DNA of 64,000 bases, from NCBI GenBank assembly GCA_964536925.1, contig CAZHZF010000001.1, positions 150 through 64,149 on the forward strand, in the 5' to 3' direction. The notes under the pieces were generated by a model. It was not told the DNA's origin. It saw only the letters and a program-made list of their open reading frames with translations, and did not search any database. The stretch comes from an uncultured Dehalococcoidales bacterium. Its GTDB lineage: Bacteria; Chloroflexota; UBA6077; FW602-bin22. Shown here in pieces: positions 29,220 through 60,810 of the stretch. Position numbers and translations under genes: made by a program. Each line of letters opens with the position of its first letter. The stretch's first letter is position 1.

Positions 29220-29693
29220 TCAGCCCTGCGTGAACCCGGCGATCTCCGCTCCCGTGAAGTCGGCGAGTTCCTGGGGAGAGAGCGGGAAGACGTCGTAGGC
29301 GCTGCCCGCGGCGGCCCAGACTTCAACGAACCGGAAGAGTTCGCGATCGAGCAGCGCCCTCATGGTGGTGCCATCGGCGGCCGTGCGCACCGGTGGAATT
29401 CCGCCGATCGCGAAGCCGGTGATTCGCTTGACCTCCGTAGCCGAGGCCATACGCGCGCCCGTCGCGCCCAGCAGCCGTGCCGCCTCGGCCAGGTCCACCC
29501 GGCGGTCGCCGCTAACGAGCGCGAGCGCGGGGCGCGTATCGGCGATCAGGACGAGCGACTTCACGATCGCACCCTGCTCCGTTCCCAGCGCGGCCGCGGC
29601 GAGCGCCGCCGTCCGCGTATCGTCGGCGAGGTGCACGATGCGATCGCCGAGGCCAAAGCCAGCCAGGAGCGCGCGGACCCGATCGACGCTCAT
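29220..29693 (-). CDS. YbaK/EbsC aminoacyl-tRNA deacylase family protein
   Basis: AIVKSLV, TGFAIGGIPP and WAAAGS motifs. Confidence 0.9.
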   Translation of the reverse strand: MSVDRVRALLAGFGLGDRIVHLADDTRTAALAAAALGTEQGAIVKSLVLIADTRPALALVSGDRRVDLAEAARLLGATGARMASATEVKRITGFAIGGIPPVRTAADGTTMRALLDRELFRFVEVWAAAGSAYDVFPLSPQELADFTGAEIAGFTQG

Positions 29694-30946
29694 CGCGGAT
29701 CGACGGGAGTCCGCCGTGCGATGCGGCGGCGGATTCGTTCGAGTCGGTGCTCCAACCCCTCGCGCAGGCGCTGCCGCTCGAATGTCGCGAGGTGAGCGGA
29801 AATGCGCGGGAGCACGCCGAGCGCCCTCGTCGTCAGGTCGCCGGCGCGCGCGTAGTCGCGCAAGCGGTGTTCAGCGTGCTTCGCCAGTTCCACGTACGGC
29901 TCCAGAGAGAGCGCCCCGGCCTCGGCGAGCGACTCCCAGATCGCGACCGCGCGATCGCGGCGGTCCAGGCGGCGATAGAGCAGCGCCGCCCGCGCGCGAA
30001 GCACCTCGTCATCGAATCCGGGATGGGCGCGCGCGCGTTCGAGACAGAACAGGGCGCGATCGGTATGTCCGGCATCCTCGAGCACACCGGCGACGCTCAC
30101 CAGGTCGCACGGGTCGTGCTCGTCTGGCGCCGGGGGATCGCCTACCGCGCGCCCGAGCCGCACCAGCAGCGCGGTGAGCGTCAGGATGTCCTGCGCGTTG
30201 TGGGCGAGGATTGGCTCCAGCGCCGAAGGATCGCGACTCCGCAGGTACTGGAAGTACTGCCCCGGGATCGCCCAGCCGGGGATGTCGTCGTCCCGATCTG
30301 CCAGGCCGAGCACGGCCGCCTCGAGCCTCTGCAGCGCGCAACCGCCGAGACGACGGCGGAAGATGCGTCGTGCCGGGAACAGCAGATCGCAGTGCAGCGG
30401 CGCGCGCGGCCAGTCGTCCAGCCGGTGGTAGAGGAACCGTGTCTCCAGGAGAGGCCAGTCGAACGTCTTGCCGTTGAAACTGACGATCGCGTCCTTCCCA
30501 CGCAGGATCGCTGCGAGCCGCTCCAGCGCGGCACGCTCCTCGGCGGGGTCGTCCACCACGATCTGATCGATCCGGAACCCACCCTCAGCGAACGTCCCCA
30601 CGCCGAGGAGAAACGCGAGCGTGCCGGTGCCCCCGGAGAGGCCGGTCGTCTCGCAGTCGAGGATTGCCAGACGCGCGGGATCGACCCAGCGGAATCGCTC
30701 GTCGCCGCTGAGGATCGCCAGTTGCTCGCCGCGATGGGCCAGGGCGTCGGAAAGCGTGACGCCGGCGTGGATATGGTCGAGCGGGTGCGCGCGGGTCTGG
30801 ACGGTGACGCCATCGGGCCGCGATCGCGCCAGGTCGCGCTCCACGGTCGCGGTGCGAGGCTCGCGCCGGGTCGATGGGTCGGGCGGAGCGAGGCTGCTCG
30901 CCCTCTTCAGGTAGCCCAGGCGGAGTAGCCGCTCTCGCGCGTCCAC
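29690..30946 (-). CDS. YprB/MrfB-like RNase H-like (DnaQ) exonuclease with C-terminal TPR-like helices
   Basis: LDCETTGLSGG, VSFNGKTFDWPLL, HCDLL..ARR and HNAQDI motifs; C-terminal ELAKHAEHR.RDY. Confidence 0.88.
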   Translation of the reverse strand: MDARERLLRLGYLKRASSLAPPDPSTRREPRTATVERDLARSRPDGVTVQTRAHPLDHIHAGVTLSDALAHRGEQLAILSGDERFRWVDPARLAILDCETTGLSGGTGTLAFLLGVGTFAEGGFRIDQIVVDDPAEERAALERLAAILRGKDAIVSFNGKTFDWPLLETRFLYHRLDDWPRAPLHCDLLFPARRIFRRRLGGCALQRLEAAVLGLADRDDDIPGWAIPGQYFQYLRSRDPSALEPILAHNAQDILTLTALLVRLGRAVGDPPAPDEHDPCDLVSVAGVLEDAGHTDRALFCLERARAHPGFDDEVLRARAALLYRRLDRRDRAVAIWESLAEAGALSLEPYVELAKHAEHRLRDYARAGDLTTRALGVLPRISAHLATFERQRLREGLEHRLERIRRRIARRTPVDPR

Positions 30947-30979
30947 GCCAACTAATCATAACGTTGGGAGTCCTCCATA

Positions 30980-30991
30980 GAACAGATGTAC
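30980..30991. promoter_or_regulatory. Putative LexA (SOS) box upstream of the exonuclease gene
   Basis: GAAC-AGAT-GTAC, one mismatch to GAAC-N4-GTTC. It overlaps the -35 position of a minus-strand TATGAT -10 (30955-30960). Confidence 0.55.
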
Positions 30992-31271: not shown

Positions 31272-32417
31272 GTGAATCGCGTACCGGTCCGTCCTGAGAT
31301 GCTTCGCTGGGCCCGAGAGCGTGCCGGCCTATCCGCGCACGATCTCGATTCGCGGTTTCCTCGGCTCTCCGCGTGGGAACGAGGCGATCGCCACCCGACC
31401 TTCAGGCAACTCGAGGAGTTCGCCAGCGCAACGCGCACTCCCTTCGGGTACCTCTTTTTTTCTGAGCCACCCGAGGAACCCGTGCCGATCCCAGACTTCC
31501 GCACAGTCCGCAGTTCCGGCATTCGACGACCCACCCCGGACCTCCTGGACGTGATCTATCTGTGCCAGCATCGCCAGGACTGGTATCGAGACTATGTCCG
31601 TGCCGAGATCGGCGAGTCCCTGCCCTTTGTTGGCGCGGCAGCGGTCGGGGACGACATCGTCCGTACAGCGTCGGAGATTCGGCGGCGACTCGAGTTCGAT
31701 CTGGATGACCGGCGCCGAATGGCAACCTGGACCGATGCGCTGCGGCGGTTCATTGAACAGGTGGATGCGCTGGGTGTTCTGGTCATGGTGAGCGGCGTGG
31801 TCGGGAGCAACAATCGGCGGCGCCTCGACCCACGTGAATTCCGGGGTTTCGCGCTCGCGGATCCTTACGCACCGCTGGTATTCATCAATGGCGCGGACAC
31901 CAAGGCAGCTCAGATGTTCACGCTGGCACACGAGCTCGCCCACGTCTGGCTGGGACAGACTGCCCTGTCGGATGCGGGCCCGGCCGGTGCGCCCGCCGAG
32001 ACTGTGGAGCGCTGGTGCAACCTCGTGGCCGCTGAGATGCTCGTACCGCTTGAGGTCCTCGGCGCCGAGCGGAATCGCTCCACAGCGCTCCGCGAGGATC
32101 TCGACAGGCTAGCGCGCCGATTCAAGGTGAGCACGTTGGTCGTCCTTCGCCGAATGCGCGACGCGGGGATGATTCGGGGCGATGCGTACGCCGATGTCTA
32201 CAGGGAGGAGGAGCAACGCCTGCGCGATACGGCGCGAGGCAGTGGCGGAGACTTCTATCTGACGCTTGGGGCTCGCGTCTCCAAGCGCTTCGCGCGCGCT
32301 CTTGTCGGTAGTACTCTGGAGGGCCAGACCTTGTACCGCGAAGCCTTCCGTCTGCTCGGGATCAAGAGGGAGGCGACGTTTCGCGAATTGGGTGCCCAGC
32401 TGGGATTTCCCGGCTGA
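31272..32417 (+). CDS. XRE-HTH + ImmA/IrrE (M78) zinc metallopeptidase
   Basis: N-terminal LRWARERAGLS...WERG..PT..QL HTH and FTLAHELAH (HExxH). Confidence 0.9.
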   Translation: MNRVPVRPEMLRWARERAGLSAHDLDSRFPRLSAWERGDRHPTFRQLEEFASATRTPFGYLFFSEPPEEPVPIPDFRTVRSSGIRRPTPDLLDVIYLCQHRQDWYRDYVRAEIGESLPFVGAAAVGDDIVRTASEIRRRLEFDLDDRRRMATWTDALRRFIEQVDALGVLVMVSGVVGSNNRRRLDPREFRGFALADPYAPLVFINGADTKAAQMFTLAHELAHVWLGQTALSDAGPAGAPAETVERWCNLVAAEMLVPLEVLGAERNRSTALREDLDRLARRFKVSTLVVLRRMRDAGMIRGDAYADVYREEEQRLRDTARGSGGDFYLTLGARVSKRFARALVGSTLEGQTLYREAFRLLGIKREATFRELGAQLGFPG

Positions 32418-32908
32418 TGCCCTACCTGTTGGATGCGAACGTGTTCATCGAGGCCAAGCGCCGCCATTACGGCTTCGACTTCTGCCCGGCATTCTGGGAC
32501 TGGCTCGACACACAGCACGCTGCTGGCAGCGTCTTCAGCATCGAGCGGGTGGGTAACGAACTGCTTGCGGCCGACGACGACCTGAGCGAATGGGCCGCCC
32601 GACGCGGCGCCGCGTTCTTTCTGCCGCCGGATGAACGGCTGTTGCCCAGCCTGGAGGCCGTCGCCGCGTGGGTACGTGGCCAGAGATTTCGGACCGGGGC
32701 CATCGGAGCGTTCCTCGAGGATGCGGATTACTTTCTCGTCGCGCACGCACACGCGTATGGGTACGTGGTCGTGACCCACGAAGTCCCCAGCGATGGTGTG
32801 CGGCAGGTCAAGATTCCGAATGTTGCGATCGGCGTGAAGCTCAGGTGCATGACGCCCTATGAGATGCTCCGAATCGAGCGGGCGCGATTCGTCCTGGCTC
32901 CGACGTGA
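32417..32908 (+). CDS. DUF4411-like PIN-fold protein (putative toxin)
   Basis: YLLDANVFI, FCPAFWDWL, ADYFLVA, VVTHE and KIPNV motifs. TGATG coupling to the peptidase gene. Confidence 0.82.
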   Translation: MPYLLDANVFIEAKRRHYGFDFCPAFWDWLDTQHAAGSVFSIERVGNELLAADDDLSEWAARRGAAFFLPPDERLLPSLEAVAAWVRGQRFRTGAIGAFLEDADYFLVAHAHAYGYVVVTHEVPSDGVRQVKIPNVAIGVKLRCMTPYEMLRIERARFVLAPT

Positions 32909-54555: not shown

Positions 54556-55836
54556 TCAGTCCAGCCGAAAGCGGGCGAACAGGTTGTAGCGCGGGCTCAC
54601 GATGACCGTGACGCGGTACGGTCCGGCGCTGGCGAACGTCTCTGGCGCCTCCAGGGGGATATCGACAGTGCGCACCGCCCGAGGCGGGATCAGGTTGCGC
54701 GGCATCGATTCGCCCGAGCTATACGCGAGGACGCCGGCCGCATCGACGACATAGAAGTCGCGGTCCTGGCCGGTGGGGTCGTCGAGGGTGGCGCCCACCA
54801 CGAGGGGCCGCGTCGTCCGGTTCTCGGCGCTGAGGCGCAGCGTGACGCGCTTGGAACGATTCGGTCCGCTCGCGGTAGTGAGGGAGAGCGCGGTCAGCGA
54901 CCAGATCTCGCCGACCTCGACACGCTGCTCCGGCCCGCGCATGTCCGCCGCGTCGGTCGCGCGCAGGATCCCGGAGGCGCGCTCGCCGTGCCGTAACGGG
55001 ATCGTCCGGCTGACGCTTCCCGCGTCGATCCCGAAACGCACCCTCAGCACGAGCGGATCGACCGCCGCGGCGGGGAGCGGGAACACATAGGTCAGATCGA
55101 TCGCATCGCCCGGGGCGGACAGGAAGTTGAAGCTTCCGTTCTCCTCGCCGGTCGCGCTGAGAAACCCGCCACCATATTCGTTGCCACTCGCGTCCTCGAT
55201 GCGCAGGGTCAGCGTTGGCGGCTCCACGAACTGGATTGGCTGCAGCACCGCGCTTCGTTCGCCGCTCGCCTGCGACCGCGGTGGGGGAGACTCGCGGGTC
55301 AGTGGGATCGAGAGCGTCGCCGCACGCGACCCATTGTTCTTGATCGAGAACGTGATGGCAACGCGGCGTCCCGTCGCCGACGGCGCGATGTCGACCGCGG
55401 TGACCACGAACTGCCAGGCATCGGACTCGATCGTGTCGCCGACGCGCGCCGCCCCCGAACCCGCGGCCCGGGCCGCCGGCGCGGCGGTGGGCGTCGCGAT
55501 CGGCGTGGCCGGCGCGGCAGGGGGGATTGCCGGGATGGGGGTGGACACGCTGCCGGGTTGGTTCGGCGGGGGTGTTGGCGCAGCGGCCGCGGGGGGTGGA
55601 GGCGGTGCCGCGCCGATCGCCGCTGTGGTGCCAGCCGGACGCACCGCCGCGGCGACGAAGAGGCCCAGAGGACCGATGAGACCGCTCGCCACAAGCGCCC
55701 AGAAGAGGATCGCGAGGAGGGTGACGAGCGCGAGCGTCGTGCCAGCGAAGAACCAGACCGCGACCGACCGGCCGCCGGTCGCCGGGCGATCGGTCATCCG
55801 TCGAGGATCGTAGGGCGGTCCATCCGGCGCGGACAA
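54556..55836 (-). CDS. Membrane-anchored protein with Pro/Ala linker and two Ig-like (DUF4352-like) beta domains
   Basis: N-terminal TM helix, PPPP/ATP linker, and VGDTIESDAWQFVVT...VAITFSIKNNG repeated as VGEIWSLT...VTLRLSAENRT. Confidence 0.65.
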   Translation of the reverse strand: MSAPDGPPYDPRRMTDRPATGGRSVAVWFFAGTTLALVTLLAILFWALVASGLIGPLGLFVAAAVRPAGTTAAIGAAPPPPPAAAAPTPPPNQPGSVSTPIPAIPPAAPATPIATPTAAPAARAAGSGAARVGDTIESDAWQFVVTAVDIAPSATGRRVAITFSIKNNGSRAATLSIPLTRESPPPRSQASGERSAVLQPIQFVEPPTLTLRIEDASGNEYGGGFLSATGEENGSFNFLSAPGDAIDLTYVFPLPAAAVDPLVLRVRFGIDAGSVSRTIPLRHGERASGILRATDAADMRGPEQRVEVGEIWSLTALSLTTASGPNRSKRVTLRLSAENRTTRPLVVGATLDDPTGQDRDFYVVDAAGVLAYSSGESMPRNLIPPRAVRTVDIPLEAPETFASAGPYRVTVIVSPRYNLFARFRLD

Positions 55837-57459: not shown

Positions 57460-59241
57460 GTGAGCCCGGCCCGGGCGCTCGCGCTGGTTCTGCTCGTCCT
57501 CATTCTGACCGCATGCGATGTCGCCCGTGCGCAGACGGCATACCGCTCCTACGTGCCCGTCAGCTACCGTGCTGTTCCGGAAGGGCCGGTCGTCGAGCTT
57601 CCGGTCGCGTCGCTCGTGCTGGCGCCTAGCGACGTGCGCTCGATCACCGGACAACTCATCTTCCTCGACCTCAGTGCCTCCGGACCGACCACGCCCGACG
57701 ACCTCTACACCACGTGCGACGCCAGCACGACGCAGCGACGGAGCGGTGCGAACGCGTCGGCCCAGCGATCGGTCCTACGCTCTGATGGCAGCGCCGGGGT
57801 GATTCAGGTCGATCACCTTGTCGCGACGTTTGGTAGCGCCGGCCTCGCCTCGCTGGTCATCGGCGATCTCGAGCGCTGCACGAGCGGCGCGTGGCTGCCC
57901 ATCGGGACGGATACCGTCGGAAACGAGTCTCGGGCGTGGCTGGCGCGCAGCGAGGTCCAGGGGCAGCGCGAGTATCTCCTGCACTTCCGCACGCGGAACG
58001 CCGTGCAGAGCCTGCGCTTGCGCGCCGCCGGCGGAGGGCTCGAGCCAACCCTTGCCCTGGGGCGGGTCGCGGCTATCCGCGCCGATCCGTCGCCACCTAC
58101 GCCTACCGCCACCACGACCGCGACGCCGACGATCACGCCGACCGCGACCCCTACTCCGACCGCCACCCCTACTCCGACCGGCACCGAGACTCCCAGTCCC
58201 ACCCCCACAGCGACGGGAACGCCGACCGCGTCGCCCTCGGCCACCGCCAGCGCGACGGAGACACCGACCCTGACTCCCACCGCCACGCCTTCGCCGACCG
58301 CGACGTGGACACCCTCGCCGACCCCGACGCCGACCGCCACCTCCACCAGCACACCCACGGCGACCACCACAGCCACGCCCACCTCGACCGCCACGGCCAC
58401 CAGTTCGCCGACACCGTCGCCGACCGCGACCGCGACGCCCACTCCGACCGCCACATCGACGCCGACGTCGACCGCGACCGATACACCGTCCCCGACGTGG
58501 ACCCCGACCTCAACCCCCTCCGCGACGCCGACTTCCACGATGACGTGGACTCCCACGGCGAGCCCCACGATCACGCGGACACCGACGGCGACACCGACCG
58601 ATACCGCCACACTGACGCCGACCGCGACATCGACGCCGACCATCACGCCCTCGTCGACCGCGACCGCGACGGCCACCTCCACGCCGACCGTGACGCCGAC
58701 GTTCACCCCCACCGCCACCGCGACGCCATCGGCGACGTCGACCGCGACGGCCACGGCGACCTTCACCCCGACCCCGTCACCGACGCCGACCCCGCCGCCG
58801 GGGATCGAGATCGCGGCCGGCCGCTCTGCCATCGCCTCGGACGCACCGAACGACCACCTCGCCGCGCACGCCGTCGATGCGCTCGCGGGTGGTCCGAACG
58901 GTCAGAATGCCTCGACCTACTGGCTCGCGACGGGCCAGGCCACCTCCGCCACGCCGCGCACGGTCACCGTCACGCTCTCCGCGGCCGACACCGTCTCGGC
59001 GGTCCAGGCCCGGCTCGCCTTCACCGGCACCGGCGCGGTGACGGCGCGCATCATCCTCCGAAACGGCAACTTCGACGAGATCGCCAATGAGGAGATCGTC
59101 AACGGCACGAAGGCCGATGGCGACACCGTCTCCTACGTGTTCGCCACGCCGGTGCCCGATGTCGCCTACGTACGGCTCGCCTTCACGTCAACCGGGTCCG
59201 GCATCGTACCGGGCGTCCGTACGTTCGGCGTCTATCGCTGA
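57460..59241 (+). CDS. Secreted protein with long Thr/Pro mucin-like stalk and C-terminal discoidin/galactose-binding-like beta domain
   Basis: Signal peptide, then RSYVPVSYR, an N-domain, about 230 aa of TPTAT repeats, and AVDALAG...STYWLA...VRL. Confidence 0.75.
58095..58800 (+). repeat. Degenerate coding tandem repeat (T-P-T/A-T units)
   Basis: Recurrent acgccgacc/accgcgac codon blocks. Confidence 0.8.
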
Positions 59242-59248
59242 CCCTCGT

Positions 59249-59470
59249 TCACGCCGCCAGACGGGAGCGCAGTTCGGCGCGCCTCTCCGGCGAGAGCGTC
59301 GACCAGAAGGACACGAACGCCGACTGCAGATCCGCGCCCAGGCGCGCCCCACGGGCCTGTGACTCCAGCGCGGCGACGTCCCGGTGCGCGCGCCGGCGCG
59401 CCCCAACGGGACGCATCGCGCGCGATCGGCGCCCGGACTCCGGAAACAGCGTCAACTGCGTCGTACGCAT
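59249..59470 (-). CDS. 73-aa orphan protein with N-terminal beta-clamp-binding motif (QLTLF), putatively SOS-regulated
   Basis: MRTTQLTLFPE...; GAGGG SD about 8 nt before ATG; dedicated consensus promoter containing a LexA box. Confidence 0.75.
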   Translation of the reverse strand: MRTTQLTLFPESGRRSRAMRPVGARRRAHRDVAALESQARGARLGADLQSAFVSFWSTLSPERRAELRSRLAA

Positions 59471-59508
59471 CGCGGTGCCCTCACTAGATCATCCGTTCTG
59501 CCTACGCC

Positions 59509-59537
59509 ATAGTAGAACGGACGTTCGATATTGTCAA
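59509..59537 (-). promoter_or_regulatory. sigma70-type promoter containing a perfect LexA box
   Basis: Minus strand TTGACA (59532-59537)-N17-TACTAT (59509-59514). The spacer holds GAAC-GGAC-GTTC (59515-59526). Confidence 0.85.
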
Positions 59538-59568
59538 CCATTATGCGCTGGGGTAGCCTGCCACCTCC

Positions 59569-60810
59569 ATGCAGCGCGCGCGTGTCGGCATCGTCGGGTG
59601 CGGCCCGATGGGGCGCCGCCACGTGGCGGGATATGCCGAACTCGCGACCACCCCCTTTGCGAACGTCGAGGTCGCCGCCGTCTGCGACCTGAACGATCGG
59701 GCAGCCGAGCAGATGGCCGAGGAGTGCCGCGTCCTCCTGGGCGCCCGTCCTCGTGTCTTTCAGTCGATCGCCACGATGGCCGAGGCGGTGGATGGCCTGG
59801 TCGGCGTCGACATTGTCACCGACCCGCGCAGCCATCATCGCATCGCGATCGAGTGCCTCGACCGCGGCCTGCACGTTCAGGTCGAGAAGCCGCTCGCGAT
59901 CACCATGCGCGCATGCAACCTGCTGATCCGCGCATCGCGCCGTTCGCGCAGTCGCCTGTGTGTCGCTGAGAACTTCCGACGGGATCCGATGAACCGGCTC
60001 GTCCGCGCGCTCATCGATGACGGCGCGATTGGCGATCCTGAGATGATGATCGAGATCTCCGCGCGCGGTGGCGATCGCGTCCTGGGCTCGGAATGGCGCC
60101 ACGATGCGCTGTCGGGTGGCCTCCTCCTCGATCTTGGCGTCCACACGGCCAGCCTGCTGCGCTATTTCGGCGGCGATGTCGAGAGCGTGATGGGTGTGAC
60201 ACGGCTCGCACGGCGCCGTCGACGCCGTGTCGGTCGCGGCGCGCGCGAGGGCGAGTGGATCGGCGCGACCGCGCACGATCTCCTCACGGCGGTGCTTCAG
60301 TTCCGCGGCGGCATGGTGGGCCAGTGGTGCCTCAATGCCGCCGCGGCGGGTCATATGGTGCGCCAGCGCGTGCTCTACGGGTCCCGTGGTTCGATCGTCG
60401 CTCCGGTTGACGCCTCCGGGCGCAGTCCGCGCCTCGACCTGATCGACGGTCAGTGTCTGACCGATGACGCCCTACTCGAACACGCCACTTCGTACCGACT
60501 GGACGCGCTCGGCGCCCACCTGTTCGGCGCGGAGCGACCGACGTCCTACCGCCTCAGCACACCGGAGATCGATCGAAAGTTGCTGGCGATGGAGTTGCAC
60601 GGGTTCGGCGACGTGATGGCCGCGGGGGCCCTACCCGAGGTCGATGCGCTTGGCGGGAGGCGGGATGTGGCCCTGGTGTGCGCGATTCTGGAGAGCGCCC
60701 GCGTGCAACGGGCCATCGCGCTCGACCAGGTGGAGTCCGGCGATCACGACCTCGCCCAGCGCGACGTGGACGGCGATCTCGGCCTCATCGAGGTTCCCGG
60801 CGCGGACTGA
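59569..60810 (+). CDS. Gfo/Idh/MocA family oxidoreductase
   Basis: VGIVGCGPMG, HVQVEKPLA and GGLLLDLGVH motifs. Confidence 0.92.
   Translation: MQRARVGIVGCGPMGRRHVAGYAELATTPFANVEVAAVCDLNDRAAEQMAEECRVLLGARPRVFQSIATMAEAVDGLVGVDIVTDPRSHHRIAIECLDRGLHVQVEKPLAITMRACNLLIRASRRSRSRLCVAENFRRDPMNRLVRALIDDGAIGDPEMMIEISARGGDRVLGSEWRHDALSGGLLLDLGVHTASLLRYFGGDVESVMGVTRLARRRRRRVGRGAREGEWIGATAHDLLTAVLQFRGGMVGQWCLNAAAAGHMVRQRVLYGSRGSIVAPVDASGRSPRLDLIDGQCLTDDALLEHATSYRLDALGAHLFGAERPTSYRLSTPEIDRKLLAMELHGFGDVMAAGALPEVDALGGRRDVALVCAILESARVQRAIALDQVESGDHDLAQRDVDGDLGLIEVPGAD

Follow-up and report, generated by a model that had tools for sequence, protein, structure and literature searches.

Bacterial SOS regulons halt cell division by means of small lineage-specific proteins. 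Direct SOS control of replication elongation is, to our knowledge, limited to the debated checkpoint of UmuD2C and the translesion synthesis (TLS) polymerases in Escherichia coli, in which UmuD, a LexA-like self-cleaving protein of the S24 type, works with the Y-family polymerase UmuC and is a substrate of Lon and ClpXP. UmuD2C is induced by SOS, contacts the clamp and has been proposed to act as a checkpoint that slows Pol III, thus giving time for accurate repair (PMC4045847). Here, we have analysed a 64-kb stretch of DNA (the window) from contig CAZHZF010000001.1 of an uncultured Dehalococcoidales bacterium, in which an earlier note, made from the letters of the stretch, had singled out a gene that combines a LexA-type operator with a 73-aa product bearing a motif of the kind that binds the beta clamp, DnaN. 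To judge from its sequence and that of its relatives, this protein is credible as a candidate regulator of DNA replication that is induced by damage and has not been described before.

The 73-aa protein is like UmuD2C in its probable LexA-type repression, in its candidate contact with the clamp and in a possible proteolytic limit to its action. Unlike UmuD, it has neither an S24 nor any other Pfam domain, it is encoded without a gene for a polymerase partner and it bears a canonical pentapeptide at its extreme N-terminus. A second group of described systems comprises toxins directed at the clamp. SocB of Caulobacter is a clamp-targeting toxin that is removed by ClpXP. In the case of RipA from Streptococcus pneumoniae, suppressors map to the hydrophobic pocket of DnaN and the effect of the toxin appears when ClpX is depleted; SocB is also mentioned in that study (PMC12795458). 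The protein described here shares its small size with SocB and RipA, whose toxicity works through DnaN. However, SocB and RipA each belong to a module of two genes, with an antitoxin or adaptor, and LexA operators have not been described for either of them, whereas the gene for the 73-aa protein is monocistronic, vertically inherited and provided with LexA-type boxes, and no sequence similarity to them was detectable.

The hydrophobic cleft of DnaN serves Pol III alpha, translesion polymerases, MutS and Hda. As in Pol III alpha, Pol II, Pol IV, Pol V, MutS, Hda and ImuB, the Q-L-x-L-F logic is found here in a terminal segment predicted to be disordered, which is N-terminal as it is in Hda. In those clamp clients the motif tethers a catalytic or AAA+ domain, whereas here it carries only a hairpin of ~50 residues, and the 73-aa protein seems to consist of hardly anything beyond a clamp ligand under regulation. 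Finally, the protein can be compared with SulA, YneA, SidA, ChiZ, DivS, DinI, YebG and YnzC, which are likewise small, under LexA-type control and often orphan or phylum-restricted, and which bind a cellular machine rather than catalyse. It differs from these SOS effectors in that it shows no homology to them, has no membrane anchor and has as its predicted target the replisome clamp and not FtsZ, the divisome or RecA. Two known ideas, a small lineage-specific SOS effector and a competitor for the clamp cleft, are combined in this gene in a form that we have not found described; in line with the earlier note, which knew of no described chromosomal SOS gene of this form, the literature that we searched contained no published equivalent.

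Promoter and paired operators of the small gene

The features that had been read at this locus are all present on the minus strand: a promoter TTGACA-N17-TACTAT whose spacer, ATATCGAACGTCCGTTC, holds a perfect GAAC-N4-GTTC palindrome, followed by a GAGGG Shine-Dalgarno sequence and by an open reading frame (ORF) that starts with MRTTQLTLFPE (Table 1). The promoter agrees with the consensus at 10 of 12 positions and is the sole promoter-like site in the region 59100..59700, where 0.0 such sites were expected from shuffled sequences. Near-consensus promoters are unusual for a genome of 68% GC, and a strong promoter shut by two operators is the arrangement found at tightly repressed SOS genes with harmful products.

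The palindrome in the spacer (operator 1, GAACGTCCGTTC) is the only perfect GAAC-N4-GTTC within the window. A single match of this kind is not significant in itself, as 0.64 matches are expected per window and at least one occurred in 51 of 100 shuffled sequences. It is by its placement and its conservation, and not by its occurrence alone, that operator 1 is beyond chance. Eleven distinct promoters were available for comparison, namely that of the window and those of loci L001, L007, L020, L021, L022, L023, L024, L025, L026 and L027. All of them consist of TTGAC[A/G], a spacer of 17 nt (18 nt in two) and TAnnnT, and in all 11 a perfect GAAC-N4-GTTC makes up the last 12 nt of the spacer, flush with the -10 hexamer, so that the upstream SOS box, whose retention in homologues the earlier note had put forward for checking, is kept throughout. 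The arms of the box are invariant, the four central bases take nine sequences (GTCC, TTAC, CTGC, GTGC, GCGG, GCGC, CTAT, GGCC and GCCC) and the spacer bases that flank operator 1 also vary. The extended operator consensus is [CA]GAAC-N4-GTTCTA. In ~99 kb of family loci, the sole perfect box elsewhere was one intragenic site on the L001 contig.

A second box, which the earlier note did not mention, is located 25-31 nt downstream of the first in 11 of 11 promoters. In the window it reads GAACGGATGATC (operator 2); its position relative to the transcript assumes a start ~7 nt after the -10 hexamer, the transcription start being predicted. This second box is perfect only in L001 (GAACAAACGTTC) and takes the form GAAC-N4-GATC in eight others. 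The constancy of the GATC arm suggests that this site is weaker by design or that it is bound cooperatively with box 1. The two operators overlap the core promoter (box 1) and the predicted transcription start region (box 2), positions at which binding would repress the gene.

In Firmicutes and Actinobacteria, GAAC-N4-GTTC has been published as the motif of LexA (PMC3323433), as the earlier note had stated. We also considered whether the box might regulate the divergent gene upstream, which encodes a GFO/IDH/MocA oxidoreductase, and rejected this possibility, as the promoter faces the small gene and no promoter-like site faces the oxidoreductase. Moreover, in L022, L023 and L027 the divergent neighbour is not the oxidoreductase but a 197-aa gene, and there the distance from the boxes to the small ORF is unchanged. 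Since the boxes stay with the small ORF despite the change of neighbour, the operators belong to the small gene. The same palindrome is common to the LexA proteins of Firmicutes, Actinobacteria and Chloroflexota, and within the last phylum it is said to have been reported as the LexA motif of Dehalococcoides by Fernandez de Henestrosa et al. in J Bacteriol in 2002. Tandem boxes over the -35/-10 spacer and over +1 represent a classic LexA arrangement. Judged from its promoter and operators, the small gene is very probably under LexA control.

Two further observations concern the boxes. In L024 (2862..3001) and L025 (440..579), the operators lie ~139 nt upstream of the called start, compared with 51-68 nt elsewhere, from which it follows that the leader is long or that the start has been called wrongly. 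Also, at 30978..30991 of the window, the minus strand reads GTACATCTGTTCTA, a box that has the same GTTCTA arm and a single mismatch. It is situated ~20 nt upstream of the Shine-Dalgarno sequence and start of an ORF (29690..30946/30959, minus strand) whose 418-aa product contains a PF13482 RNase_H_2 (exonuclease-like) domain, and the window may have in it a second LexA site, of weak type.

A narrow protein family with an N-terminal clamp-type motif

The 73 codons of the small ORF encode MRTTQLTLFPESGRRSRAMRPVGARRRAHRDVAALESQARGARLGADLQSAFVSFWSTLSPERRAELRSRLAA. Its GC content by codon position is 0.72/0.64/0.85, a profile like that of the neighbouring genes. The ratio of nonsynonymous to synonymous substitution rates (dN/dS), calculated against the window gene by the Nei-Gojobori method, was 0.14 for the closest (88%-identical) orthologue and 0.28-0.54 for seven more distant orthologues, in which dS was near saturation; in two further orthologues dS was saturated and no dN/dS was computable. 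The 73-aa ORF is a real gene under purifying selection, and a spurious ORF in a high-GC genome is ruled out by the GC content of the third codon position, by dN/dS and by the conservation of the family.

To find relatives of the protein, searches of increasing depth were combined. A single-sequence search returned two relatives, with 88% and 60% identity, and an exhaustive phmmer search of 1.84 billion cluster representatives returned six. The profile search, among 5.8 billion proteins, defined a family of 59 clusters at 90% identity with a length of ~72 aa. Of these clusters, two fall below 70 aa (49 and 40 aa) and represent truncated versions. Six exceed 76 aa (80-112 aa), and most of the six have extra N-terminal residues that resemble the result of mis-called starts. 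The only named members come from metagenome-assembled genomes (MAGs) designated "Chloroflexi/Chloroflexota bacterium" (MBM4416913.1, with locus tag FJ033_01140, and HEY3082739.1). A scan of metagenomes added only 3 further loci, and most of the genomic context was obtained from look-ups of exact family proteins. Among the GTDB species representatives, 38 pattern matches were obtained and none was confirmed as family; in the same representatives, a degenerate DNA pattern for DL[RKH]SAF[AV]SFW gave 9 loci, in Acidobacteriota, Planctomycetota and other phyla, all of which were rejected as chance matches. To the extent that these collections reveal it, the family is confined to one uncultured, high-GC Chloroflexota clade. 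Across ~50% sequence divergence, the promoter with both boxes, the N-terminal motif and the C-terminus with its Ala-Ala end are all conserved in the family.

The N-terminal module of the family comprises residues 1-9 and has the consensus M-x-A-T-Q-L-P-L-F in the 59-member alignment; in the window protein, the N-terminal peptide that bears the candidate motif is MRTTQLTLFPES. Conservation of QLxLF in homologues, on which the earlier note had staked its proposal, was borne out: of the 57 full-length members, 55 have Q[LM]x[LM]F as their residues 5-9, with position 7 variable. QLPLF is the commonest version (36 members), followed by QLSLF (6), QLTLF (4), QLSMF (4) and QLALF (2), and QMTLF, QLLLF, QLELF, KLPLF and QLSLS occur once each, the last of them in L025. 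The family pentapeptide fits the clamp consensus QL[S/D/x]LF position by position, including the free third position. By chance, the motif would be expected 0.001 times per 73 aa, and no match was present in the 14,402 aa of the other window proteins.

We then examined a structure predicted from the family alignment with AlphaFold2 (AF2). Residues 1-21 were without secondary structure, and the two 10-residue blocks that cover residues 1-20 had a mean predicted local distance difference test (pLDDT) score of 55 and 52. A conserved motif in a disordered segment next to a poorly conserved linker is, on this model, the signature of a short linear motif. The commonest family form, QLPLF, resembles the ImuB motif QLPLWG, which was shown experimentally to be required for clamp foci (PMC10421592). 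We lean towards the view, based on the consensus fit and the conservation of the peptide, that the N-terminal motif binds the DnaN (beta) clamp.

Downstream of the motif, the model agrees with the basic linker and the short helical C-domain that the earlier note had described, with helices at residues 22-58 and 61-72. The mean net charge of the whole family proteins is +5.2. The conserved C-terminal core covers residues ~40-73 and has the consensus LG[CA]DLRSAF[AV]SFWxxL[SP]PERRAELRxR[LIV]AA, in which R40, L44, G45, D47, L48, S50, A51, F52, S54, F55, W56, L59, P61 and E62 are near-invariant. Mean pLDDT reached 93, 95 and 91 in the blocks that cover residues 51-73. The very end of the protein, on which the earlier note had made no comment, is [LIV]AA in 56 of 59 members and RLAA in the window protein, where the Ala-Ala follows Leu, the residue preferred at this place in ssrA-like degrons. 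Only 1 of the 37 other window genes has an Ala-Ala end (1.7% expected). In the ssrA tag and in related degrons, recognition by ClpXP depends mainly on Ala-Ala-COO- (PMC7652416).

No known family could be assigned to the 73-aa protein in Pfam or NCBIfam (both at E up to 1-10) or in PADLOC, PHROGs returned only one meaningless match (E 0.067), and neither a profile search of PDB sequences nor a Foldseek comparison with the PDB gave a match. The absence of a catalytic domain, also claimed in the earlier note, was borne out by these searches. In particular, Pfam detected no Peptidase S24 domain, the domain with a Ser-Lys dyad and a cleavage site, and the predicted fold is all-helical, unlike that of UmuD and LexA-like proteins. 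By these homology tests the 73-aa protein stands outside every described family. The coordinates of the gene and of its features are collected in Table 1.

Table 1. Position of the small gene, its control elements and the segments of its product (window coordinates)
Feature	Position	Strand	Basis or remark
-35 hexamer TTGACA	59532..59537	-	same in 9/11 orthologous promoters; other two TTGACG with 18-nt spacer
Operator 1, perfect LexA-type (Cheo) box GAAC-GTCC-GTTC	59515..59526	.	fills spacer, abuts -10
-10 hexamer TACTAT	59509..59514	-	TAnnnT kept in 11/11 promoters
Operator 2, imperfect box GAAC-GGAT-GATC, 1 mismatch	59487..59498	.	about +5..+16 of predicted transcript
Shine-Dalgarno GAGGG	59478..59482	-	7 nt 5' of ATG
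Coding sequence, 73-aa protein	59249..59470 (ATG at 59470; stop codon included)	-	codon-position GC, dN/dS, family of 59 clusters
QLTLF, codons 5-9, candidate beta-clamp-binding motif	59444..59458	-	Q5, L6 and F9 at least 90% conserved
Linker, codons 10-21: variable, Arg-rich, disordered	59408..59443	-	low conservation, indels; pLDDT <50 at residues 13-16
Helical hairpin domain, codons 22-72	59255..59407	-	AF2 helices 22-58 and 61-72
Leu-Ala-Ala-COOH, codons 71-73, candidate ClpX degron	59252..59260	-	resembles end of ssrA tag

A divergent paralogue was also found. Besides FJ033_01140, the orthologue with 88% identity, the sister MAG encodes an 85-aa protein (P0064, FJ033_10740, L019 740..997) that keeps the C-terminal F..F.ARLSPERRAELRAW helix and is without QLxLF, the Ala-Ala end or a GAAC-N4-GTTC box. 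Its gene adjoins a MocR-like gene, and no other relatives of it were found among 5.8 billion proteins.

Proposed action at the clamp and competing explanations

We propose that the 73-aa protein is a LexA-repressed, probably short-lived beta-clamp ligand and that, when DNA has been damaged, it contends with polymerases for the cleft of the clamp; to this reading we give slightly less than an even chance. In the undamaged cell, LexA dimers on the two operators, over the spacer and the transcription start, would keep the strong promoter shut. Upon DNA damage, RecA-stimulated cleavage of LexA would produce a burst of the protein, and the disordered QL-x-LF peptide would insert into the hydrophobic cleft of DnaN. 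Occupancy of the cleft would compete with Pol III alpha and other clients, and elongation would be slowed or re-routed during repair. The basic flexible linker would join the peptide to the small hairpin, which could self-associate or bind a partner. A self-associating hairpin would turn the protein into a bivalent ligand for the dimeric clamp, and if the hairpin dimerises, both clefts of the DnaN dimer could be plugged at once. The C-terminal [LIV]-Ala-Ala would make the protein a ClpXP substrate, and the block would decay once LexA re-represses the gene. In this scheme we infer the binding of LexA to the boxes, the binding of the motif to DnaN, the inhibition and the turnover by ClpXP. By analogy with known systems, an inhibitory "checkpoint" outcome is a possibility that we hold tentatively, and with some doubt.

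Several observations weigh against this proposal. All members of the family are derived from metagenomes, including lake and soil samples such as the Ga0194132/Ga0194110 series, and there is no cultured host. The narrowness of the family, for which the patterns used gave no hit among GTDB species representatives, excludes a general role in bacterial replication control. Also, lexA, recA and dnaN are absent from the window, and the pattern scans of GTDB representatives did not reach the clade. The QLSLS and KLPLF members deviate from the motif, and a five-residue motif could serve another partner. The sequence in itself would be compatible with inhibition as well as with recruitment at the clamp. 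With regard to proteolysis, the AF2 model places the Ala-Ala end at the tip of the confident helix 61-72, with only residue 73 non-helical, and the end may be inaccessible as a degron and conserved simply as part of the fold. The proposal of ClpXP action is weakened because of this position at the tip of a confident helix; the short C-terminal helix may fray, and we regard turnover of the 73-aa protein by ClpXP as conceivable, somewhat short of probable.

The alternative that survives best, although we consider it improbable, is that the protein acts as a clamp-tethered adaptor: attached to DnaN through its motif, it would use the hairpin to bring a factor of the damage response to clamps left behind at stalled forks or gaps. 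Translesion or DnaE2/ImuB-type polymerases, RecA and nucleases are conceivable as such a factor, and on balance the protein would then favour tolerance or repair and not slow replication. It is the hairpin, and not the motif, that is the most conserved and most confidently folded part of the protein, which suggests a specific binding surface, and hub-type accessory proteins that bridge clamp and polymerase are known, for example ImuB (PMC10421592). SOS control and the motif suit an adaptor as well as a blocker, and overall the data fit an adaptor almost as well. However, no candidate partner gene is linked to the small gene at any locus, the neighbours being the oxidoreductase, ABC transporters and metabolic genes, and a hairpin of 50 residues is small for a specific adaptor. 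In addition, when a near-consensus promoter is tightly repressed through two operators, its product is more typically a harmful one.

SOS regulons typically hold one small, fast-evolving and lineage-restricted division inhibitor, which is non-homologous between phyla. The 73-aa protein, being small, orphan, monocistronic and tightly LexA-boxed, has the typical appearance of these inhibitors, and an SOS effector with a target other than the clamp, either a division inhibitor (like SulA, YneA, SidA, ChiZ and DivS) or a modulator of RecA or LexA (like DinI and RecX), would account for the same locus. We judge this possibility to be less likely still than an adaptor. Unlike YneA, SidA, ChiZ and DivS, the protein contains neither a transmembrane segment nor a signal peptide nor a LysM domain; it is highly charged throughout and has no hydrophobic stretch long enough for a membrane. 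Searches for SulA, DinI, RecX, YebG and DUF896 did not match it either. Furthermore, the fit of the N-terminal pentapeptide to the clamp consensus, free third position included, would have to be coincidental.

A different question is whether the palindromes are LexA sites at all. If they were operators of another regulator, the gene would lie outside the SOS response, and both the lack of lexA in the window and the chance expectation of 0.64 GAAC-N4-GTTC per 64 kb leave room for this explanation, to which we give a slim chance. We know of no other widespread regulator with exactly this palindrome. Against another regulator, the extended consensus [CA]GAAC-N4-GTTCTA matches the core and inner flank of the Cheo box, the tandem geometry is the classic one for LexA and the motif is shared by the LexA proteins of Firmicutes and Actinobacteria (PMC3323433). 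Lastly, it is very improbable that the protein belongs to a toxin-antitoxin-like or selfish module as a toxin against the clamp, comparable to SocB or RipA and only incidentally controlled by LexA: clamp-targeting toxins restrained through ClpX do exist (PMC12795458) and the Ala-Ala end would suit constitutive removal by ClpXP, but no antitoxin or adaptor gene is adjacent in any locus, the gene being monocistronic in each, no SocB/RipA-type homology and no PADLOC or PHROG match were found, and the housekeeping synteny is kept across ~50% protein divergence with no mobile-element genes nearby.

If the 73-aa protein is indeed a LexA-repressed and probably proteolytically timed stand-alone clamp ligand, it would represent a simpler, genetically separable checkpoint of the UmuD2C type. 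In its boldest form, the proposal would make it the first dedicated SOS checkpoint protein of replication elongation, LexA-gated, ClpXP-timed and solely devoted to plugging the polymerase-binding clamp cleft, which we think unlikely. Were it true, DNA damage would act directly on the replisome hub without a polymerase or protease domain. DnaN is an antibiotic target validated through griselimycin, and a natural peptide inhibitor of DnaN would be at hand if the clamp is blocked in this way. More generally, conserved signatures that combine an operator with a motif allow functions that can be tested to be assigned to small orphan proteins from uncultured phyla. Should LexA control alone hold true, the locus would still provide a clean, strongly repressed SOS reporter promoter for Chloroflexota.

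Gene setting and other features of the window

The small gene is monocistronic between unrelated genes in all loci examined. In the window, a 593-aa ORF (57460..59241, plus strand) converges on it, with 7 nt between the two stop codons. On its other side, the gene for the GFO/IDH/MocA oxidoreductase (59569..60810) is divergent, an arrangement that agrees with the monocistronic reading of the earlier note. No terminator was detected in a scan of 59100..59700, nor between the convergent stop codons. An Rfam search of 58900..59900 revealed no RNA family, and therefore a known riboregulator is not an alternative.

The window is ordinary chromosome with 67.6% GC, and contains the nuo operon, prfA with prmC, pfk, gnd, asd and an Opp-type ABC importer. 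In distant relatives the small gene keeps its place beside the same GFO/IDH/MocA gene and an ABC exporter pair. From this conserved synteny it follows that the gene is vertically inherited and not mobile, and the candidate explanation of a phage or mobile-element gene was ruled out by the housekeeping and transport neighbours together with the synteny.

Some neighbouring genes have features of their own. The product of the convergent ORF 57460..59241 starts with an N-terminal signal-like segment, and low-complexity repeats of Thr, Pro, Ala and Ser make up ~300 of its residues. Pfam gave no match for it, and the antisense strand of the ORF yields long spurious ORFs. Another protein with no Pfam match, of 426 aa (54556..55836, minus strand), is encoded between a gene of the metallo-beta-lactamase fold and the Opp-type permease genes, and its relatives at the same position (e.g. 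L001 8467..9708) are 413-445 aa long. Finally, the region 31272..32908 contains a gene for a fused HTH_3 and Peptidase_M78 (IrrE/ImmA-like) protein of 381 aa and, directly after it with an overlap of one base, a DUF4411 gene (163 aa). This pair looks like a two-gene regulatory or toxin-antitoxin-like module among housekeeping genes.

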